Assembly (NCBI GenBank): GCA_963665465.1
Contig: OY762226.1
Location: forward strand, 5,713,612 to 5,777,611
Direction: 5' to 3'
Source of the DNA: Vicinamibacterales bacterium
GTDB lineage: Bacteria; Acidobacteriota; Vicinamibacteria; Vicinamibacterales; UBA8438
DNA: 64,000 bases
How positions within the stretch are numbered: the first letter of the stretch is position 1; each line of letters begins with the position of its first letter. A model generated the notes under the pieces. That model was not told the origin of the DNA and did no database searches. It saw only the letters and a list, made by a program, of their open reading frames with translations. The position numbers and the translations under genes were made by a program. Positions 47,739-64,000 of this stretch are shown here, in pieces.

Positions 47739-48212
47739 ATGGTCCTGGAATTTTTCGAGTGGATGGAAGGCAGCGCGCTGAGCCTGACGTTTCAGTCGGC
47801 GGTCTGGTACAGCCCGCTCATTCAGGTGATGCACCTGGTGGCGGTGGCGTTTTTCTCGGGCTCGCTGCTGGTGGTGGACCTGCGGCTGCTGGGCGTGGGT
47901 CTGACGGCGCAGCCGTTGCGTCAGGTGGCCGAGGACGCGCAGCCGTGGCTGGTGGGGGGGCTGGTGGCGCTGGCGATCACGGGCACGCCGACGATGGCGT
48001 CGACGTCGATCAAGCAGTACTACAGTCCGTTCTGGTGGTGGAAGATGGAGATGCTGCTCTTGGGCCTGATCTTCATCTTCACGGTGCGGCGCAAGGTCAT
48101 CGCGGCCGACGAGGGCTCGTTAGGCCCGGTCTGGCCCAAGGTCGTCGCGCTGACCTCGATGGGCATCTTCCTCGGCGTCACCATCGGCGCCCGCCTCATC
48201 GGACTGTCCTAG
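47739..48212 (+). CDS. Integral membrane protein, paralog 2 of the pair
   Basis: It shares FEWME/FEWLE, HLV/HVV...DLRLLG/DLRLTG, the W-rich third helix and the C-terminal GARLIG/GRMIA motifs with 47194-47723. Confidence 0.7.
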   Translation: MVLEFFEWMEGSALSLTFQSAVWYSPLIQVMHLVAVAFFSGSLLVVDLRLLGVGLTAQPLRQVAEDAQPWLVGGLVALAITGTPTMASTSIKQYYSPFWWWKMEMLLLGLIFIFTVRRKVIAADEGSLGPVWPKVVALTSMGIFLGVTIGARLIGLS

Positions 48213-51931: not shown

Positions 51932-52020
51932 GTGCCGCTGCTGCTCAATGGTAGCAGGCCGCCGGACGGCGCAACCGCGCTATGCTGTAGCGGAACTCAC
52001 TTGATGGCGAGGAGATGCCG

Positions 52021-53274
52021 ATGCTGAACGGAGCTGTGTCAGGACGGACGTTCCCGGTTGCCGCGGCCGCCGTCCTCGTGGTGGCGCTCAACGTGCCGGG
52101 TGCGGGGCAGGAGGTCGAGCAGCGGCGCGACTGCCTGGACTGCGAGGCGTCGGGCACGCTGCCCGCCGGGCCGCAGGTCTTCCATACGCAGGAGCAGAGC
52201 TTCCGGGTCGTGCCGATGACGGGCCTGGTGCGCCCGTGGGCCATGGCCTTCCTGCCGAACGGCGACCTGCTGATCACGGAGCACGACGGCCGGCTCCGCA
52301 TCGTGCGCGACGGCGTGCTCGACCCCGAGCCCCTGGCCGGCATCCCGGAGGTGTTCACGCCCCGCCGCAAGGGGCTGATGGACGTCGCGCTGCATCCCCG
52401 CTTCCTCGACAACCAGTTCGTCTACTTCACCTACCACAAGGCGAGTCCGAAGCACCGGCTCGCTGCCACGACCGTGCTCGCCCGCGGCAAGTTCGAGGGG
52501 CGGGGCGCACTCGTGGAGGTGCGCGACCTGTTCGTGGCAGACGCCGACTACATGGGCGCGGCCCAGACCTCGCGCATCATCTTCGGCCCGGACGACAAGC
52601 TCTACATGGTGGTCGGCCAGCCGGCGCGCTACGAGGTCGGCTCGTCCGACTACGCGCAGGACCCGTCCAACCACGCCGGCAAGATGCTGCGCCTGAACGA
52701 CGACGGGACGGTCCCCGACGACAACCCGTTCGTCGACACGCCGGGCTACCGGCCGGAGATCTACGCCCTCGGCATTCGCAATTCGAACGGCCTGGCATGG
52801 CACCCGGAGACCGGCGAGCTGTGGGAGACGGAGAACGGCCCGCAGGGCGGCGACGAGGTGAACATCATCCGCGCCGGCGCCAACTACGGCTGGCCGGTGG
52901 TCTCGTACGGCCGGGCGTACTCGGGCGACCTGACCGGCACGCATTCCGGGCCGCAGCGAACCGCCCGCCAGATGGAAGGCGTCCAAGACCCGGTCTTCTT
53001 CTGGAGCCCGTCGATCTCGCCGGCCGGACTGATGTTCTACACCGGCGACCGCTTCCCGAACTGGCAGGGCGACCTGTTCGTCGGCGCGCTGCGGGGCGCC
53101 GAGCTGCAACGCCTGATCTTCAACGACCGCGGCCTGCTGGTGCGCCAGCAGGCGCTGTTGCGCGAGCTCGGGCAGCGCATCCGGGAGGTCCGGCAGGGGC
53201 CGGACGGCCTGATCTACGTGCTGACCGACGAGCAGGACGGGGCACTGCTGCGCCTCGAGCCGGTGGAGCCGTAG
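52021..53274 (+). CDS. PQQ-dependent sugar dehydrogenase (soluble aldose/sorbosone dehydrogenase family), copy 1
   Basis: GLVRPWAMAFLPNGDLLITEHDGRLRIV...GLMDVALHPRF...HAGKMLRLNDDGTVPDDNPF...YALGIRNSNGLAWHPETGELWETENGPQGGDEVNIIRAGANYGWP. ATG 52015 directly abuts GGAG, so ATG 52021 is preferred. Confidence 0.85.
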   Translation: MLNGAVSGRTFPVAAAAVLVVALNVPGAGQEVEQRRDCLDCEASGTLPAGPQVFHTQEQSFRVVPMTGLVRPWAMAFLPNGDLLITEHDGRLRIVRDGVLDPEPLAGIPEVFTPRRKGLMDVALHPRFLDNQFVYFTYHKASPKHRLAATTVLARGKFEGRGALVEVRDLFVADADYMGAAQTSRIIFGPDDKLYMVVGQPARYEVGSSDYAQDPSNHAGKMLRLNDDGTVPDDNPFVDTPGYRPEIYALGIRNSNGLAWHPETGELWETENGPQGGDEVNIIRAGANYGWPVVSYGRAYSGDLTGTHSGPQRTARQMEGVQDPVFFWSPSISPAGLMFYTGDRFPNWQGDLFVGALRGAELQRLIFNDRGLLVRQQALLRELGQRIREVRQGPDGLIYVLTDEQDGALLRLEPVEP

Positions 53275-55581: not shown

Positions 55582-57410
55582 CCTGCCTCGATGTCCACCG
55601 TGAGCGTCCGGGAGCCGGACACCGCGTGGTCGGTGCGGATCTCCCACTCGCCGAGCGTGGCCTGGGAAAGCGGCCGGAGTCCGCTGCCGCTCCGGTCGCC
55701 CTCGAGCACCGCCAGCACCGACTGCGGCAGCGCGGGCATCGGCGCACCCCGGACGACCGCGCCCGGCCGCGAGCTGAGCAGCTTGACGTAGAGGCGGTTG
55801 TTGCGCCGGGTGGCGTTGAGGGTGCGGATGATCTGCTCGACGGTGCCGGAAGTCCGCGCCGAGCGCGTCTCGCGGAGCTCGCGGGCGTTCAGCTGCAACG
55901 CATCCGACACCAGCAGCTGCATCCGCCCTGCCGCGTGGCGAGGAATGTCGACCGTGACGGTCTCGATCAGCTCGGCCCCGCCGTAGCCGCGCGCGAGGAC
56001 ATGGAGCCGCACGGCATCGCCCGGGCGGACGCGCGGCGCGTCGAGCCAGACGCGCTCGATGGTCGCCGTGCGCGGCGTCTCCGCCGACGTGATGTCGATG
56101 TCGATCCCGTCGACCTCGAGGGGTGCGATGCGGTTGTTCAGCAGCGTGGTCAACGGATTGGCAATCGCCCCCGCCGCGCCGAACAGGGCCGTGTCGCCGC
56201 TGTAGATGTCCTCGAACGCGACGTCCGTGTGGCCGCGGACGCGGGTCGTGCTGCTGAGCGCGTAGGTCGATGCCCCGCGCTCGCGGGTCCACGACAGCAA
56301 CGTGCTGAGCACGCCGGTGTAGGTCAGCAACGGTGTGAAGAGCCGGTCCTCGACGACCTCGAACGCGAACTCGCGCGTCAGGCTGCGGGCCGGCTCGTGC
56401 AGCGTGACGCGGACGGGAACCATCGCGGGCCCCGGTCCCAGCGCGCCGAAGATGCCGGTCGAGCGGTCCTGATCCAGGGTCCCGACGACCTCCCCGATGG
56501 CGGCGATCTTCGACGACAGGGCGAGGCTCGGCAACAGCGTCGTCACGGTGGCGCGGGTCATCGGGAAGCGGATCGGCCCGAGGTTGTAGAACGGGTGCCC
56601 GAAGGCGTAGACGCGGCCGTCGTCGACCAGCGTCACCGTGCCGGTGCCCGCCAGCGTCAGGTCGCCCTGCACGAGCGTCGCCCCGATCGGATCGCCCGGC
56701 TGCAGGGGCGCGGCGGCCGGCGGGCGCGGGGTCTGGCCGGCGCCGACGGCGGTCACGAAGCCGCTGCCCCGGAACGCAGCGGTCCACAGCTCGCGGACGC
56801 GCGGATCGAATCCGTTGAGCACCACCGGTGTGGCGATGGGCTGCAGCATGGTGCCCAGCCGCCGGCCTGCCGCTGGCGGCAGGCCGAGCGCGCGCACGTG
56901 ATCGGGTTGCCGGGCGAACGGCCGCGCGCCGTCGAACGCCGCGCCGATCACCGCCTGCACGTCGGCCGGCGTCGCCGGAAACGCCGGCGGCAACGTCGCC
57001 GGCCGCACGACCTCGCTGCGGTTGGCGTCCGACGCCGCCATCTCGCCGATCGGGGTGATGCCGGCGATCGGTTCTCTGGGGAAGGAGCCGAGCGCATAGG
57101 AGACCGCCCCGATCAGCCTGTCGTCGACGTAGACCGGGCTGCCGCTCATGCCCTGGATGACCCCCGTCTCGGCCAGCGGTCCACCGGACAGCCGGGCCAC
57201 GATGACGTTGCGGCGCGGGCCCATGACGTTGCGCAGGACGCCGAGGACCTCGGCCCCGAATTCTTCCCGCCGGCTGCCCTCGAACACGGTGAGGCCGACT
57301 CCGCGCATGCCCGGCCGCACCTCCTCGAGAGGCATGCGCGCCGTCGTTGCCGGCAGTGCCGCGGTGCACAGGCCGGCTGCCAGGCACAGGACGGGGATGA
57401 TGAGTCTCAT
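55578..57410 (-). CDS. SpoIVB-type peptidase S55 domain protein, secreted
   Basis: Signal MRLIIPVLCLAAGLCTAA. GVGLTVFEG...GVLRNVMGPRRNVIVARL...TGVIQGMSGSPVYVDDRLIGAVSYA is the S55 serine-protease core. Confidence 0.75.
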   Translation of the reverse strand: MRLIIPVLCLAAGLCTAALPATTARMPLEEVRPGMRGVGLTVFEGSRREEFGAEVLGVLRNVMGPRRNVIVARLSGGPLAETGVIQGMSGSPVYVDDRLIGAVSYALGSFPREPIAGITPIGEMAASDANRSEVVRPATLPPAFPATPADVQAVIGAAFDGARPFARQPDHVRALGLPPAAGRRLGTMLQPIATPVVLNGFDPRVRELWTAAFRGSGFVTAVGAGQTPRPPAAAPLQPGDPIGATLVQGDLTLAGTGTVTLVDDGRVYAFGHPFYNLGPIRFPMTRATVTTLLPSLALSSKIAAIGEVVGTLDQDRSTGIFGALGPGPAMVPVRVTLHEPARSLTREFAFEVVEDRLFTPLLTYTGVLSTLLSWTRERGASTYALSSTTRVRGHTDVAFEDIYSGDTALFGAAGAIANPLTTLLNNRIAPLEVDGIDIDITSAETPRTATIERVWLDAPRVRPGDAVRLHVLARGYGGAELIETVTVDIPRHAAGRMQLLVSDALQLNARELRETRSARTSGTVEQIIRTLNATRRNNRLYVKLLSSRPGAVVRGAPMPALPQSVLAVLEGDRSGSGLRPLSQATLGEWEIRTDHAVSGSRTLTVDIEAG

Positions 57411-57541
57411 GGGGCGGGGCGCCAGATCGGCCACGTAGTCGATGTGTATAGCGGACCGCAGGCGGCAGGTCAAGGACGTTCGGGGTGCCGGGCAAACCGC
57501 GCTATGCTGTAGCGGAACCTTCCCATGGTCAGGAGATGCCG

Positions 57542-58840
57542 ATGCTGAACCGAGCGAACCGCAGCGGACCGCTGGCCGTTGCCGCCGCCGTCGCAGTGCT
57601 GCTGGGCGGGCCGGCCGCGGCCCAGGACTTCGAGCCGGCGATCGACGACGCGGAGCGGCAGACTGACTGTCAGGGCTGCGAGCCGTCGGTCGCCCTGTCC
57701 GACGAGCCGCGGGTCTTCCGCACGCAGGAACAGACCTTCCGGGTGGTGCCGACGACGGGCCTCGTGCGCCCGTGGGCGCTCACGTTCCTGCCGAACGGCG
57801 ATCTGCTGGTCACGGAGCACGGCGGCCGCCTGCGCATCGTGCGCGACGGCGTGCTGGATCCCGAGCCGCTGGCCGGCATCCCGGAGGTGTTCACCAGGCG
57901 CCGCAAGGGATTGATGGACATCGCGCTGCACCCCCGCTTCGCGGAGAACCAGTTCGTCTACTTCACCTACCACCAGCAGAGCTCGGAGCACCGCATGGCG
58001 GGGACGCCGGTGCTCGCCCGCGGCAAGTTCGAGGGGCGGGGCGCGCTCGTGGAGGTGCGCGACCTGTTCGTGGCGGACGCTCCGTACATGGGAGGCGCCC
58101 AGACGGCTCGTATCGCGTTCGGGCCCGACGGCAAGGTGTACATGGTCATCGGCGTCCCCACCCGCAACCCGGTGGGCCAGGCCGAGAGCGCGCAGGACCC
58201 CGCCGACCACGCCGGCAAGGTGCTGCGGCTGAACGACGACGGGACCGTTCCCGAGGACAACCCGTTCGTCGACACGCCGGGCTACCGGCCGGAGATCTAC
58301 GCCCTCGGCATCCGGAACGCGAACGGGTTCGCGTTCCACCCGGAGACCGGCGAGCTGTGGGAGACGGAGAACGGCCCGCAGGGCGGCGACGAGGTGAACA
58401 TCATCCGCGCCGGCGCCAACTACGGCTGGCCGGTGGTCTCGTACGGCCGGGCGTACTCGGGCGACCTGACCGGCACGTACTCCGGGCCGCAACAGACCGC
58501 CCGGCAGGCGGAAGGCATCGACGACCCGATCTTCTTCTGGAACCCGTCGATCTCGCCGGCGGGCATGCTGTTCTATACGGGCGATCGCTTTCCGAACTGG
58601 CAGGGCGACCTCTTCGTCGGCGCGCTGCGCGGGCGGGAGGTGCAGCGCCTGATCTTCAACGACCGCGGCCTGCTGGTGCGCCAGCAGTCGCTGCTGCGCG
58701 AGCTCAGGCAGCGCATCCGCGAGGTCAGGCAGGGGCCGGACGGCCTGATCTATGTGCTGACCGACGAGGAGGACGGGGCGCTGCTGCGCCTCGAGCCGGT
58801 AGACGCGGAGGCCGCGCCGGCCGGCCGGCCGCGGAATTGA
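57542..58840 (+). CDS. PQQ-dependent sugar dehydrogenase, copy 2
   Basis: It is a paralog of 52021-53274, including a conserved 5' region. Identical tracts are 58256-58311 and 58337-58477. ATG 57536 abuts AGGAG, so ATG 57542 is preferred. Confidence 0.85.
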   Translation: MLNRANRSGPLAVAAAVAVLLGGPAAAQDFEPAIDDAERQTDCQGCEPSVALSDEPRVFRTQEQTFRVVPTTGLVRPWALTFLPNGDLLVTEHGGRLRIVRDGVLDPEPLAGIPEVFTRRRKGLMDIALHPRFAENQFVYFTYHQQSSEHRMAGTPVLARGKFEGRGALVEVRDLFVADAPYMGGAQTARIAFGPDGKVYMVIGVPTRNPVGQAESAQDPADHAGKVLRLNDDGTVPEDNPFVDTPGYRPEIYALGIRNANGFAFHPETGELWETENGPQGGDEVNIIRAGANYGWPVVSYGRAYSGDLTGTYSGPQQTARQAEGIDDPIFFWNPSISPAGMLFYTGDRFPNWQGDLFVGALRGREVQRLIFNDRGLLVRQQSLLRELRQRIREVRQGPDGLIYVLTDEEDGALLRLEPVDAEAAPAGRPRN

Positions 58841-58876
58841 CAGCCCGTTGGGCCGTCTGCTACGGTCTACGTTCAC

Positions 58877-58987
58877 ATGACCCGCAGTGGAACCCGGCGC
58901 GGCACCCCTTGCGGCTACGCCGCAGCCAGTCGCGGCTGGTGGTGGCGCTACGTGTTCAGCGCGCCCGCTGGAGGGGCTGACATGTAG
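58877..58987 (+). CDS. Putative trp operon leader peptide (36 codons, WWW)
   Basis: ATG 58877 ... TGG TGG TGG (58937-58945) ... TAG 58985-58987, reading MTRSGTRRGTPCGYAAASRGWWWRYVFSAPAGGADM. It lies just upstream of a terminator and the aroDE-trpEGDC genes. There is no clear SD, and it falls below the ORF-track length cut-off. Confidence 0.55.
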   Translation: MTRSGTRRGTPCGYAAASRGWWWRYVFSAPAGGADM

Positions 58988-59023
58988 GCCGGCAGGTCGA
59001 CATTCAGGACGAAACGGATTTCG

Positions 59024-59060
59024 AGCCTCTTCAGCCGCAACGGTTGAAGGGGCTTTTTTT
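59024..59060 (+). terminator. Intrinsic terminator / attenuator hairpin with T7 tail
   Basis: 59024-59037 (AGCCTCTTCAGCCG) pairs with 59041-59054 (CGGTTGAAGGGGCT), giving 14 bp including two G-U pairs and a CAA loop. A run of seven T follows, ending at 59060, 17 nt before the aroDE start. Confidence 0.75.
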
Positions 59061-59077
59061 GTTGGAGCGACGAGCGA

Positions 59078-60520
59078 GTGCGAGCCAGGCTGTGCGCGAC
59101 GGTAACGGGCCGGACGATGGCGGAGCTGCGGGCACGCCGCGACGCTGCGGACGGCGCGGATCTGGTCGAGCTGCGACTCGACCAGGTCTGCGAACCGGAT
59201 GTCGCCGCCGCGCTCGCGGGCCGGCGCACGCCCGTGGTGGTGACCTGCCGGCCCGCCTGGGAGGGAGGCGGCTTCGGCGGCTCCGAAGAGGAGCGCCGCG
59301 GACTCCTCGAGCGGGCACTGGAGCTCGGCGCCGACTACGTCGATCTGGAATGGCGGGCCGGACTGGACGACCTGATCCGGGCCAGACGCGGGCGCAACAT
59401 CGTGCTGTCGACGCATGACTTCGAGCGGATGCCCGGCGACCTCGTGGACCGCTACCGGGCCATGCGGGCCACCGGCGCCGAGGTCGTGAAGATCGCCGGC
59501 CGGGCCCGCAACCTGACCGAGACCCTGGCCCTGCCGGAGATCGGCGCCGGCGACCCGGGCCGGGTGCTCGTCGCCATGGGACCGGCCGGCACGGTGTCCC
59601 GCGTGCTGCCCGACCGCTTCGGATCGTCCTGGACCTACGCGGGCGACGGCGTCGCCCCGGGTCAGATCGGCCTGCGCCGCATGCTCGACGAGTTCCGGGT
59701 CCGCTCGGTCACCGACTCGACGCTGCTGTACGGTGTCCTCGGTGCGCCGGTAGGGCACTCGCTGTCGCCCGCGATGCACAACGCCGCCTTCGCCGCCGCC
59801 GGGCAGGATGCGGTCTACCTGCCCCTGGAAGCGGCCGGCGCGGACGACTTCTGGACGTTCGCGCAGGCGATGGAGCTGCGCGGCGCGAGCGTGACGGCGC
59901 CCTTCAAGGAGGCCGTTCTGCCGGGGCTGGCCGCGACGGACGCGCTGGTTGGCCGGGTCGGCGCGGCCAACACCCTGCGAGCCGGCGAGCACGGTTGGGA
60001 GGGCATCAACACGGACGTGCCCGGGTTCCTCGAGCCGCTGACAGGCCGCATGGGGCTGCAGGGCAGCCGCGCGACCGTGCTCGGCGCCGGCGGCGCCGCA
60101 CGCGGCGTGGCGGTGGCGCTCGACAGCGCCGGGGCGCAGGTCACCGTGCGCGCACGCAATGCCGAGCGCGCCGCGGGCGTGGCGCGGCTGGTCGGCGGCA
60201 TTGCCGGCGGGCTGCCGCCGCCGGCCGGCTCCTGGGACCTGCTCGTCAACACGACGCCGGTGGGCACCGCCCCGGGCGTCGGCGACAGCCCGCTGCCCGG
60301 GGGGGCGTTCGACGGCCGGCTGGTGTACGACCTGGTCTACAACCCGGCAACGACCCGCTTGCTGGCGGAGGCGTCGGCCGCCGGCTGCGGCATCCTCGGC
60401 GGGCTGCCGATGCTGGTGGCGCAGGCCGTCAGGCAGTTCGAATGGTGGACGGACACGGCCGTCCCGCGCGAGGTATTCGCCGCGGCAGCGCGGCGGCGGC
60501 TGGCCGCGGCGGGAGACTGA
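59078..60520 (+). CDS. aroDE: Bifunctional 3-dehydroquinate dehydratase (type I) / shikimate 5-dehydrogenase
   Basis: The N-terminal half reads LCATVTG...DLVELRLD...VVVTCRP...YVDLEW...VVKIAG (AroD type I with active-site Lys). The C-terminal half reads LYGVLGAPVGHSLSPAMHNAAF...VTAPFK...NTD...GAGGAARGV (AroE). Confidence 0.85.
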   Translation: MRARLCATVTGRTMAELRARRDAADGADLVELRLDQVCEPDVAAALAGRRTPVVVTCRPAWEGGGFGGSEEERRGLLERALELGADYVDLEWRAGLDDLIRARRGRNIVLSTHDFERMPGDLVDRYRAMRATGAEVVKIAGRARNLTETLALPEIGAGDPGRVLVAMGPAGTVSRVLPDRFGSSWTYAGDGVAPGQIGLRRMLDEFRVRSVTDSTLLYGVLGAPVGHSLSPAMHNAAFAAAGQDAVYLPLEAAGADDFWTFAQAMELRGASVTAPFKEAVLPGLAATDALVGRVGAANTLRAGEHGWEGINTDVPGFLEPLTGRMGLQGSRATVLGAGGAARGVAVALDSAGAQVTVRARNAERAAGVARLVGGIAGGLPPPAGSWDLLVNTTPVGTAPGVGDSPLPGGAFDGRLVYDLVYNPATTRLLAEASAAGCGILGGLPMLVAQAVRQFEWWTDTAVPREVFAAAARRRLAAAGD

Positions 60521-62046
60521 TGGAAGCTGGAATCATGCACGACACGTCGTTCGACGAATTTCGGGAGCGCGCACGAGACGGCACGTTCGTGCCGATCTGC
60601 AAGGAAGTGATGGCCGACCTGCTGACGCCCGTCTCGGCGTTCCTCAAGGTCGCCGAGCACGCCGACAACGCCTTCCTGCTGGAGAGCGTCGAAGGGGGTG
60701 AGCGTCTGGCGCGCTATTCCTTCCTCGGCAAGGACCCCTTCATGGTGCTCCGGGCCCGCGACGGGCGCACGGTCATCGAGCGCGGCGCCGAGCGCGAGGA
60801 GCGTGCGGAACCGTTCATCGACACGCTGCGCGACGTGATGGGGCGCTGCCGGTCGCCGTGGGTGCCCGGGCTGCCCCGGTTCACCGGCGGGGCGGTCGGG
60901 TTTCTGGGCTACGAGGCGGCCGGCTGGTTCGAGCCGTCCCTCGGACGGGCCTGGGCGCAGCACGGCAAGACGGCCGGGGCGGGAGGCGAGCTGGCGGCCT
61001 TCATGCTGTTCGACACGATCCTCGCGTTCGATCACGTGAAGCACCGGATTCTGATCATCGCCAACGCCGCGATCGGCGACGGGGGCGATCTGCGGGGGCA
61101 CTACGACTTCGCGCAGACCCGGATCGGGTTCCTCGAGCGCGAGCTGCGGCGCAGCATCTCCGAGCGCGACGACACGCCGGACGAACGCTTCGAGGTGCGG
61201 TCGAACACGACGCGCGAGGCGTTCGAGGAGAGCGTGCGGACCGCGAAGGAGCACATCCGCCGGGGGGACATCTTCCAGGTCGTGCTCTCGCAGCGCTTCG
61301 AGGCCGACGTGACGGTCGATCCGTTCACCGTGTATCGGACGCTGCGCTACGTGAACCCCTCGCCGTACATGTACTTCATCCGGATGGGTGCGCGCGTCCT
61401 CGTGGGATCGTCGCCGGAGATGCTCGTGCGCGCGGAGGGGACGCACGTCGAGACCCATCCGATAGCCGGCACGCGGCCGCGCGGGCCCAGCGAGGCCGAG
61501 GATGCGCGGTTGGCTGCGGAGCTGCAGCAGGACGAGAAGGAGCGGGCGGAGCACGTCATGCTGGTGGATCTGGGCCGCAACGACCTGGGGCGGGTCTGCA
61601 AGTTCGGGACGGTGACGGTGCCCACCTACATCACGCTCGAGCGCTATTCCCACGTCATGCACCTGGTCTCGCGGGTGGAAGGGGAGTTGACTGCCGACCA
61701 GGACCGCCTCGACGCCCTGGCCGCCTGCTTTCCGGCGGGAACGGTGTCCGGTGCGCCCAAGATTCGGGCCATGGAGATCATCGCGGAGCTCGAGTCGACC
61801 ACGCGCGGCCCGTACGCCGGCGCCATCGGCTACCTCGACTTCGCCGGGCACCTGGACTGCTGCATCACCATTCGGACCATCCTCATCGAGGGCGGCAAGG
61901 CCTACGTCCAGGCCGGCGCCGGGATCGTCGCCGACTCGAGCCCCGCCGCCGAGTTCCAGGAGACCTGCGACAAGGCGTCGGCATTGCTGCGCGCGCTCGA
62001 GATGGCGCAGCGCGGCCGCGGGCCGACGAGCATGGGAGTGAGCTGA
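60520..62046 (+). CDS. trpE: Anthranilate synthase component I
   Basis: ATG 60520 overlaps the aroDE stop (TGATG). LLESVEGGERLARYSF, GDIFQVVLSQRF, NPSPYMYF, GTLSGAPK-type (GTVSGAPKIRAMEII) and GGAIGY-type motifs are present. Confidence 0.9.
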   Translation: MEAGIMHDTSFDEFRERARDGTFVPICKEVMADLLTPVSAFLKVAEHADNAFLLESVEGGERLARYSFLGKDPFMVLRARDGRTVIERGAEREERAEPFIDTLRDVMGRCRSPWVPGLPRFTGGAVGFLGYEAAGWFEPSLGRAWAQHGKTAGAGGELAAFMLFDTILAFDHVKHRILIIANAAIGDGGDLRGHYDFAQTRIGFLERELRRSISERDDTPDERFEVRSNTTREAFEESVRTAKEHIRRGDIFQVVLSQRFEADVTVDPFTVYRTLRYVNPSPYMYFIRMGARVLVGSSPEMLVRAEGTHVETHPIAGTRPRGPSEAEDARLAAELQQDEKERAEHVMLVDLGRNDLGRVCKFGTVTVPTYITLERYSHVMHLVSRVEGELTADQDRLDALAACFPAGTVSGAPKIRAMEIIAELESTTRGPYAGAIGYLDFAGHLDCCITIRTILIEGGKAYVQAGAGIVADSSPAAEFQETCDKASALLRALEMAQRGRGPTSMGVS

Positions 62047-62051
62047 GCGTC

Positions 62052-62618
<567 letters not shown>

Positions 62619-63638
62619 ATGTTTGCCGGCCTCATCGAGAAGCTGCGGCGGCGGCGCGATCTGACCGAGCCGGAAGCGGCGGCGGCCATGGCCGAGATCA
62701 TGGGAGGGCGGGCGACGCCGGCACAGATCGCCGGCCTGCTCGTCGGTCTGTCGATGAAGGGCGAGCGGCCGGCCGAGATCGTCGGTCTCGCCAGGACGAT
62801 GCGCGCCGAGTCGGTGGCGCTGTCACGCTCCTTCGCGAACGTGTTCGACACCTGCGGGACCGGCGGCGACGGCCTGGGCACGTTCAACGTGTCGTCGCTC
62901 GCCGCGCTGGTGCTGGCCGCCTGCGGCGTCCGCGTCGCCAAGCACGGCAACCGTTCGGTGTCGAGCCGCTGCGGCAGCGCCGACCTGTTCGCCGCGTTGG
63001 GCGTGGACGTATCCGCCGCGCCGGCGGTGGTCGAACGCTGCCTGGCCGACGTCGGCATCGCCTTCTTCTTCGCGCCCACGTTCCATCCGTCGATGCGGCA
63101 TGCCGGCCCGACGCGGCGCGAGCTGGGCGTGCGCACGGCGTTCAATCTGCTGGGCCCGCTCACGAATCCGGCGGGCGCGACCAGGCAGCTGATCGGTGTG
63201 CCGAGCCCCGAGTACACGGACCTGATTGCCCATGCCCTCGTGCAGCTCGGATCCGAGCACGCGTGGGTGGTGCACGGTGCGGAAGGGCTCGACGAGATCT
63301 CCCTCGGCGGGCACACGAAGGTCTCGGAATGCCGCGACGGAGCAGTGCATACGTTCTACCTGCACCCCGCCGATTTCGGGCTGGCGCCCATGCCGCTCGA
63401 GCGCCTGCGCGTGACCGACATCACGGAGAGCGCGGCGCTGGCCCGCAGGGTGCTGGACGGCGAGCGCTGCGCCGCGCGGGACTTCGTGGTGGTGAACGCG
63501 GCCGCGGGGCTGTTGGTCGCGGGGCGCGCGGCGTCGCTCCGTGAAGGGACGCGGAGAGCGGCCGACGCGCTCGACGACGGATCGGTCGCAGCCAAGCTGC
63601 GCGAACTGGCCGACGCATCGACGGCGGGGGAGGCGTGA
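62619..63638 (+). CDS. trpD: Anthranilate phosphoribosyltransferase
   Basis: The ATG directly follows the trpG stop. [51 protein letters not shown] and FFFAP are present. Confidence 0.9.
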
Positions 63639-63641
63639 GCA

Positions 63642-64000
63642 TGGTCGAGGGCGCCACCGGGCGGCGCCCGTCGACCCAACGTCCGGATCTGCTCGAGGCG
63701 ATCGTGGCCGCCACGCGGCACGAGGTGCTGTTGCGCGAGAAGCAGGTGAGCACGGCAGCCCTGGAACGGGCGGCGGCTCGTCGTGCGCCGCAGGCCGACG
63801 CGTTTCGGGCGGCGCTGGCCGCGGGCGGCCGCTTCAACGTCATCGCCGAGTGCAAGCGGCGGTCGCCGTCGCGGGGTGTCCTGCGCCCGGACTACCGGCC
63901 GGAACGGATTGCACGCGAGTACGCGGCCGCCGGCGCGTCGGCCGTGTCCGTGCTGACGGAGCCGACGTTCTTCGACGGCAAGCTGAGCGATCTGGCGGCG
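63642..64000 (+). CDS. trpC: Indole-3-glycerol-phosphate synthase, 5' part (3' end outside window)
   Basis: ATG 63642 lies 3 nt after the trpD stop. [12 protein letters not shown]...[17 protein letters not shown]...[18 protein letters not shown] is the canonical TrpC N-terminal region. It is not in the ORF track because no stop is reached. Confidence 0.85.

Follow-up and report, generated by a model that had tools for sequence, protein, structure and literature searches.

An intergenic element in the window, the 64,000-nt stretch of the Vicinamibacterales contig OY762226.1 analyzed here, is very probably a ribosome-mediated (leader-peptide) transcription attenuator of the aroDE-trpEGDC operon, as judged from its sequence elements and their conservation. 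The element lies in a 237-nt gap, with the stop of a glucose/sorbosone dehydrogenase (GSDH) gene (58840) on one side and the GTG start codon of aroDE (59078) on the other, and would most likely switch the operon on when tryptophan is low. A tryptophan attenuator had been proposed at this place in an earlier note made from the letters of the DNA, and the proposal was upheld in its essentials, as conservation was found for the short open reading frame (ORF) with its tandem Trp codons, for the terminator and for a helix that excludes it. The coordinates given there for the leader ORF (58877-58987), the three Trp codons and the gap were correct on re-reading, the strong hairpin followed by seven T proved to be a 15-bp terminator, and the assignment of the downstream genes as aroDE, trpE, trpG, trpD and trpC was confirmed by Pfam. 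Elements of this kind were detected at more than 150 related loci of Vicinamibacteria (Acidobacteriota), genomes and metagenomes taken together. Most documented cases of leader-peptide attenuation are from Proteobacteria, Actinobacteria and a few Firmicutes. The mechanism is a textbook one, and by these sequence comparisons it is the abundant, lineage-wide occurrence in Vicinamibacteria that is new.

In the trpL leader of E. coli, a short ORF with tandem Trp codons precedes trpE, a terminator and an antiterminator share the 5' arm of the terminator, and the position of the ribosome selects between the two structures. The corresponding features of the window are listed in Table 1. The tandem Trp codons TGGTGGTGG (WWW, 58937-45) lie inside a leader ORF of 36 codons, and a complete ORF containing WWW arose in 11 of 20,000 shuffles of the 237-nt gap. 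The window contains three copies of TGGTGGTGG, compared with 0.39 expected. The two other copies (47869-47877 and 48033-48041, both on the forward strand) were rejected as leaders, both being inside one long membrane-protein-like ORF; the copy at 48033-48041 encodes ...SPFWWWKMEM..., and that at 47869-47877 is out of frame.

Table 1. Positions of the attenuator features and of the operon genes in the window
Feature	Position	Strand	Basis or remark
-35 hexamer TTGACA	58837..58842	+	overlaps TGA stop of the GSDH gene; TTGACA or TTGAC(G/C) in most related loci
Extended -10 element TGcTACGGT (TG 58858-59, hexamer 58861-66)	58858..58866	+	TGnTAnnnT conserved across loci
Leader ORF, 36 codons and TAG, peptide MTRSGTRRGTPCGYAAASRGWWWRYVFSAPAGGADM	ATG 58877 to TAG 58985-87	+	sequence, ORF list
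Putative regulatory codon cluster W-W-W-R-Y-V-F (Trp 58937-45, Tyr 58949-51, Phe 58955-57)	58937..58957	+	codon composition of related loci
Antiterminator 5' strand (region 2) GCUGGAGGGGCU, codons A-G-G-A	58967..58978	+	inside the ORF, ends 6 nt before TAG
Spacer from leader stop to terminator	58988..59022	+	antiterminator loop with two small local hairpins (fold)
Intrinsic terminator, 15-bp stem 59023-37 / 59041-55, loop CAA, U7 59054-60	59023..59060	+	fold, conservation
Shared strand (region 3), terminator 5' arm AGCCUCUUCAGC	59024..59035	+	pairs with region 2 or with the 3' arm
GGAG before aroDE start	59064-67	+	sequence
aroDE, fused type I 3-dehydroquinase / shikimate dehydrogenase	59078..60520	+	GTG start; Pfam PF01487, PF08501 and PF18317
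trpE (anthranilate synthase I)	60520-62046	+	Pfam
trpG (GATase)	62052-62618	+	Pfam
trpD	62619-63638	+	Pfam
trpC, partial	63641 to window end (64000)	+	Pfam

The terminator hairpin starts approximately 36 nt after the leader stop codon, and its U-tract ends 17 nt before the aroDE start. Its calculated folding energy was -25.8 kcal/mol (z = -4.7), it was the sole terminator-like site within 57000-64000, and no second copy of the motif was present in the 64-kb window. Both arms were strikingly conserved among relatives, with the form (A)GCCUCUUCAGCC...GGUUGAAGAGGCU followed by a run of U. When 55 related sequences were aligned with MAFFT (alignment A1), the core of the terminator was paired in 96.4% of the cases with compensatory changes at 5 of 11 pairs, and RNAalifold returned the terminator alone. 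The 3' arm was also considered as a Shine-Dalgarno site for aroDE and was discarded, because its spacing to the start codon varies so widely among loci (from 9 to more than 100 nt).

Related loci were collected by a protein-anchored scan with AroDE, taking one genome per species. The scan gave 80 loci, mostly from Vicinamibacterales or from metagenome-assembled genomes (MAGs) of Vicinamibacteria; the best showed 89% identity and most showed 50-65%, and the Acidobacteria-like origin suggested earlier agreed with the closest relatives being Vicinamibacterales. The terminator was found 9-140 nt before aroDE in 58 of the 80 loci, again mostly in Vicinamibacterales, and was not found in the more distant members of the set, which included Blastocatellia, Acidobacteriaceae, Thermodesulfobacteriota and archaea. 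All 58 terminator-bearing loci had a short ORF rich in W (WW, WWW, WWWW or W-x-W) just upstream; its start codon preceded the W cluster by 13-31 codons, and its stop codon followed the first W by 8-18 codons. The comparison of orthologous upstream regions, to which the earlier note had looked for a short ORF with Trp codons and covarying helices, thus revealed both. As a GSDH gene was present upstream in only three of the 53 loci with enough flanking sequence, these being the three closest relatives, the leader-terminator unit travels with aroDE and not with its upstream neighbor.

The four closest sequences (alignment A2) varied most in the N-terminal codons of the leader and were almost unchanged from the W codons through the U-tract, which is expected if the peptide itself is unimportant and selection acts on the RNA and the regulatory codons. 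The spacer that follows the leader stop was likewise unchanged in these four sequences and was variable in distant loci. An exact look-up of three leader peptides and AroDE in a collection of 15 billion proteins matched none of them, so that it gives no evidence that gene callers report the leader ORFs.

Metagenomes were scanned with a pattern composed of TGGTGG, a gap of 50-80 nt and the two terminator arms, leaving region 2 and the genes unspecified. The scan detected 120 loci, of which 106 were genuine, four had too little downstream sequence, and ten were set aside as chance matches, such as tRNA genes or gene ends with similar terminators. All 106 genuine loci carried an aroD(E) homologue 3-143 nt downstream, followed by trpE where the contig was long enough, and none of them had another gene directly after the element. 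The placement of aroDE under such an attenuator, which the earlier note had thought unusual, is therefore the rule in this lineage.

The 5' arm of the terminator (region 3) has a second complementary partner in the distal part of the leader ORF, here called region 2. The two segments can form a helix of 12 bp including three G-U pairs, with a duplex energy of -22.6 kcal/mol in comparison with -24.1 kcal/mol for the terminator stem. As read from this pairing, the terminator and the antiterminator share the region 3 strand and are mutually exclusive. Region 2, inside the leader ORF, was the strongest pairing partner of the terminator 5' arm at every locus, with energies from -12 to -28 kcal/mol. 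Region 2 of the relatives is purine-rich, G(A/G)AG(A/G)GGC, and is located a few codons after the W cluster, where it encodes E-G-A, G-E-A or G-G-A. A contiguous helix of at least 8 bp between a leader segment and the 5' arm was present in 97% of the 106 metagenome loci and in 8.5% of shuffles, and the mean duplex energy was -18.9 kcal/mol against -11.1 kcal/mol in the shuffled sequences. The covariation of the helix was assessed on alignment A1 with 500 shuffles and with the partner slid by 1-3 columns. The antiterminator was paired in 84.5% of the cells, compared to at most 57% when slid, and its covariation score of 0.225 was reached by none of the 500 shuffles (0.175 +/- 0.009). Double-sided changes were seen at 5 of the 12 pairs, such as A-U / G-U / G-C at columns 53:120 and U-A to C-G at columns 51:122. 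The covariation was real but modest, because the helices are so conserved in sequence.

Folding calculations agreed with a switch between the two helices. The window RNA ending at 59037, lacking the 3' arm, adopted the antiterminator as its minimum-energy fold regardless of whether the upstream leader was included, whereas the full-length RNA preferred the terminator. RNA from 59001 onward, which mimics the presence of a ribosome at the stop codon, folded into the terminator alone. The positions of the segments also fitted the dimensions of a ribosome, which protects approximately 12-15 nt on either side of its decoding center (P/A sites). In the 106 metagenome loci, region 2 started at a median of 15 nt after the first WW (10th-90th percentile, 12-16) and ended at a median of 12 nt before the stop codon; in the window, it starts 21 nt after WWW and ends 6 nt before TAG. 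These distances suggest that a ribosome stalled on a W codon would leave region 2 just exposed, and that a ribosome at the stop codon would cover it.

The start of the transcript can be placed from a promoter pattern shared by most of the related loci, TTGACA (or TTGACG/C), a spacer of 17-18 nt and TGnTAnnnT, with 18 nt in the window. Both the -35 and -10 elements of the window were unchanged across the four closest sequences. The distance from the end of the -10 hexamer to the leader start codon was clustered at 9-14 nt in most loci, and no Shine-Dalgarno sequence was recognized before the leader start in the window or in most of the related loci. From this spacing and the lack of a Shine-Dalgarno sequence, we infer that the leader mRNA is probably leaderless or nearly so, with a 5' untranslated region (UTR) of about 2-6 nt. 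The attenuators of Corynebacterium glutamicum are reportedly on leaderless transcripts as well, which would parallel this arrangement. One clade (L004, L012, L015, L033 and L062) was different in having a TGCTAGCCT -10-like element at a greater distance upstream of the leader start, with an in-frame GTG preceded by a GGAG-like sequence, and some lineages may thus use a conventional Shine-Dalgarno-led leader rather than the near-leaderless form.

With these elements, the attenuator could operate as follows. Transcription would start from its own promoter (TTGACA at 58837, 18 nt, TGcTACGGT) a few nucleotides before the ATG at 58877, which would let a ribosome bind very soon after the 5' end is made. 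With charged tRNA-Trp in good supply, this ribosome would translate past the W codons and region 2 (58967-58978) as far as TAG at 58985, where it would cover, or would already have unwound, region 2 while RNA polymerase synthesizes 59023-59060. With region 2 masked, the terminator hairpin would form and transcription would stop at the U-tract. When tRNA-Trp is scarce, the ribosome would stall at 58937-45 with its leading edge approximately 12-15 nt downstream; region 2 would stay naked and pair with 59024-35 once the terminator 5' arm has been made. Formation of the antiterminator would block the terminator and allow the polymerase to read into aroDE and the trp genes. The simplest model has three segments, in which an untranslated or stalled leader would be read through and only a completed leader would lead to termination.

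Several observations weigh against this interpretation. The function is read from the logic of the sequence and from conservation. The covariation is modest, with double changes at just five of the 12 antiterminator pairs, and measures counting pairs or pair types were no better than shuffles for the antiterminator in the 55 sequences. The end of region 2 lies 13-15 nt ahead of the stop codon in some loci, so that a ribosome at the stop would cover region 2 partially. The leader start has no Shine-Dalgarno sequence and initiation of the leaderless type is assumed, while classical leaderless mRNAs begin exactly at the AUG, unlike a transcript with a 5' UTR of 2-6 nt. A conserved region 1:2 hairpin (anti-antiterminator or pause hairpin) was not detected, as the best upstream partner of region 2 had a mean z of -0.18 relative to shuffles. 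This partner was variably placed among loci, and region 2 tended to pair with the sequence before the W codons in partition-function folds (mean probability, 0.45). Such a hairpin is not required in leader-peptide attenuators as a class, and the lack of a demonstrable one points to a three-segment version of the E. coli scheme, not a four-segment one. Untranslated transcripts are consequently predicted to be read through, unlike those of E. coli trp.

The codons around WWW were examined in 57 loci. Within the first eight residues counted from the first W, the frequencies of W, Y and F were 35%, 13.6% and 4.6%, respectively. After this cluster, W and Y were absent (0%) and F accounted for 0.3%, and W before the cluster accounted for 0.2%. 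Tyr was present within the cluster in 48 of the 57 loci and Phe in 20. The positions of the cluster swap W, Y and F between loci, exemplified by F in L001 at the position of Y in the window; since exchanges among these residues need two nucleotide changes, selection appears to act on the encoded amino acid and not on the RNA sequence. The cluster also preferred U-ending codons, with UAU:UAC of 49:32 for Tyr and UUU:UUC of 19:8 for Phe, compared with 92:313 and 146:534, respectively, in the aroDE genes of the same loci (Fisher p of ~1e-10 for Tyr and ~1e-7 for Phe, uncorrected for relatedness). As the Tyr and Phe codons are mostly in rare forms and the first gene, aroDE, serves the common pathway, a multivalent attenuator is a reasonable reading. 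We tentatively suggest, as something possible rather than probable, that the leader senses several aromatic amino acids, in that starvation for Trp or Tyr, and perhaps Phe, would stall the ribosome and de-repress the operon. Multivalent leaders of E. coli include those of ilvGMEDA (Leu/Val/Ile codons) and thr (Thr/Ile codons), and the present leader is like them in containing codons for several end products of a branched pathway, W and Y (and F), and unlike them in that multivalence is here only suggested by codon composition and bias. No multivalent attenuator responding to aromatic amino acids is known to us or was found in the literature searched.

Other explanations of the element were also considered. 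An additional role in trans, like that of rnTrpL/peTrpL of Sinorhizobium meliloti, might be played by the leader peptide or by the ~185-nt attenuator RNA once released. The sequences of region 2 and the terminator (GAAGRGGC / GCCUCUUC) are indeed conserved well beyond the needs of a hairpin, as such a role would explain, and precedents for such functions are given by PMC6614838 and PMC7298713. The threefold constraint on region 2, as a coding sequence, as the partner of region 3 and as a mimic of region 4, may however suffice for this conservation, and the N-terminus of the peptide is not conserved, so that a trans role is unlikely on the present evidence.

The antiterminator drawn in the earlier note was a different one, with GGCUGA (58975-80) pairing with UCAGCC (59031-36) and AGGC (58986-89) with GCCU (59025-28), 6 + 4 bp bracketing the leader stop codon. 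The complementary segments are present in the sequence, and 58975-78 overlaps the conserved region 2, so that this pairing may represent a minor alternative register. It was, however, absent from the minimum-energy and centroid folds, the context of the stop codon varies among distant loci, and 58967-78 x 59024-35, the conserved and covarying register, was the strongest duplex both in the window and in all the relatives. The terminator and an alternative fold are thus exclusive as had been expected, but the alternative is formed by region 2 rather than by the 6 + 4 helix, which can be drawn but is neither predicted by folding nor conserved, and an attenuator working through that helix is very unlikely.

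A switch independent of translation, in which a protein or small ligand binds the leader RNA and the UGG repeats are an RNA motif, was judged to be just as improbable. Between the W codons and the terminator, the RNA shows unusual sequence conservation for loci whose proteins are only 50-60% identical, and the leader start lacks a Shine-Dalgarno sequence, both of which would suit such a switch. The UGG triplets, on the other hand, invariably share one reading frame that has a start codon upstream and reaches its stop within a narrow range downstream, the substitutions in the cluster exchange W, Y and F by two nucleotide changes rather than preserving nucleotides, and the distance from the -10 element to ATG is clustered. 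Known RNA families gave no support to it either. No Rfam family reached its gathering score anywhere in the 64-kb window, and a search of 58780-59120 at E <= 10 gave terminator-like or spurious matches only (e.g., ctRNA_p42d with 18.8 bits against a threshold of 50). Neither Trp_leader (RF00513) nor a T-box, nor any riboswitch, matched at this element. The trp leaders regulated by TRAP, of the Bacillus type, contain approximately 9-11 (G/U)AG triplets 2-3 nt apart; the 237-nt gap has five scattered ones with no run of four or more.

That the element is a coincidence of an ordinary GSDH terminator and a chance ORF in GC-rich DNA is hardly credible and is already contradicted by the comparative sequence data, for although an ORF of 36 codons is not unusual by itself at ~70% GC and the terminator does sit downstream of the GSDH gene, a conserved promoter intervenes between the GSDH stop and the leader ORF, the unit accompanies aroDE whatever lies upstream, all genuine metagenome matches precede aroD(E), and the gap shuffles seldom gave a complete WWW ORF.

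The leader-peptide attenuator favored here resembles trpL of E. coli in its tandem Trp codons and in a terminator and an antiterminator sharing the terminator 5' arm. The logic of trpL invoked in the earlier note holds insofar as the position of the ribosome would choose the fold, and probably does not extend to the four segments, as no conserved region 1:2 hairpin was found here. Region 2 is inside the ORF, whereas it is downstream of the stop codon in enterobacterial trpL including that of E. coli, and the leader has 36 codons and no Shine-Dalgarno sequence, compared to 14 codons in E. coli. In addition, Tyr and Phe codons join those for Trp, and the first gene is aroDE instead of trpE. In C. 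glutamicum, according to PMC11802643, which summarizes Neshat et al. 2014, trpL controls trpEGDCFBA and a separate leader, aroR, with Phe-Tyr-Phe is present upstream of aroF. Leader-peptide attenuation of both trp genes and a shikimate-pathway gene is thus common to that actinomycete and the present locus. The aro and trp attenuators are there separate units with separate specificities, whereas here the fused aroDE-trp operon has one leader with W and Y/F codons, and the elements of C. glutamicum (Actinomycetota) showed no sequence relationship to that of Acidobacteriota. For the soil bacterium S. meliloti, PMC6614838 describes a ribosome-dependent Trp attenuator with a short Trp-codon ORF upstream of trpE(G), for which trans functions of the RNA and the peptide were demonstrated; its sequence, leader length and operon content differ from those found here. 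Each of the variant features of the present element, namely region 2 within the ORF, no evident region 1:2 hairpin, a near-leaderless start, the mixture of aromatic codons and aroDE as the first gene, has a precedent elsewhere.

The operon starts with aroDE, encoding two steps of the common aromatic (shikimate) pathway, and continues with the Trp branch. The aroDE stop overlaps the trpE start in TGATG at 60518-60522, and this overlap suggests translational coupling inside the operon. In three metagenome loci (L090, L164 and L198), similarity to AroDE in the gene after the attenuator is confined to the dehydroquinase half (residues ~5-269), and trpE follows ~830-950 nt after the terminator, giving aroD-trpE without a shikimate dehydrogenase domain. 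Four other loci (L016, L040, L047 and L064) came from MAGs titled Bifidobacterium breve, Bifidobacteriaceae or Acidimicrobiia and carry the Vicinamibacteria-type locus on GC-rich contigs; these bins are probably mislabeled or contaminated. The upstream neighbor, the GSDH gene at 57485-58840, is one of two GSDH (PF07995) paralogues on the forward strand of the window; the other is located at 52015-53274, 5.5 kb apart. The two proteins share 78% identity, and one 300-nt stretch of their DNA is 84% identical.

According to Naville and Gautheret (2010), hardly any of the attenuators predicted in Acidobacteria had a function associated with them, and leader-peptide systems had until then been recognized in Proteobacteria and Actinobacteria only; their study added Firmicutes (PMC2965389). 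No published description of this element in Acidobacteriota or Vicinamibacteria was found in the full texts searched, which leave out most subscription journals, so that a prior mention is possible. The element provides a clear and abundant example in a soil class dominated by uncultured members, and can be used for genome annotation and as the seed of a covariance model. A further prediction is that transcription and translation are coupled tightly enough in Vicinamibacteria for attenuation to work from a nearly leaderless mRNA. The linkage of aroDE with the trp genes and the cluster of Trp and Tyr (and Phe) codons raise the question of how the common aromatic pathway is balanced against one of its branches. 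Multivalent sensing, if true, would explain why aroDE is found under a 'trp' leader throughout Vicinamibacteria.

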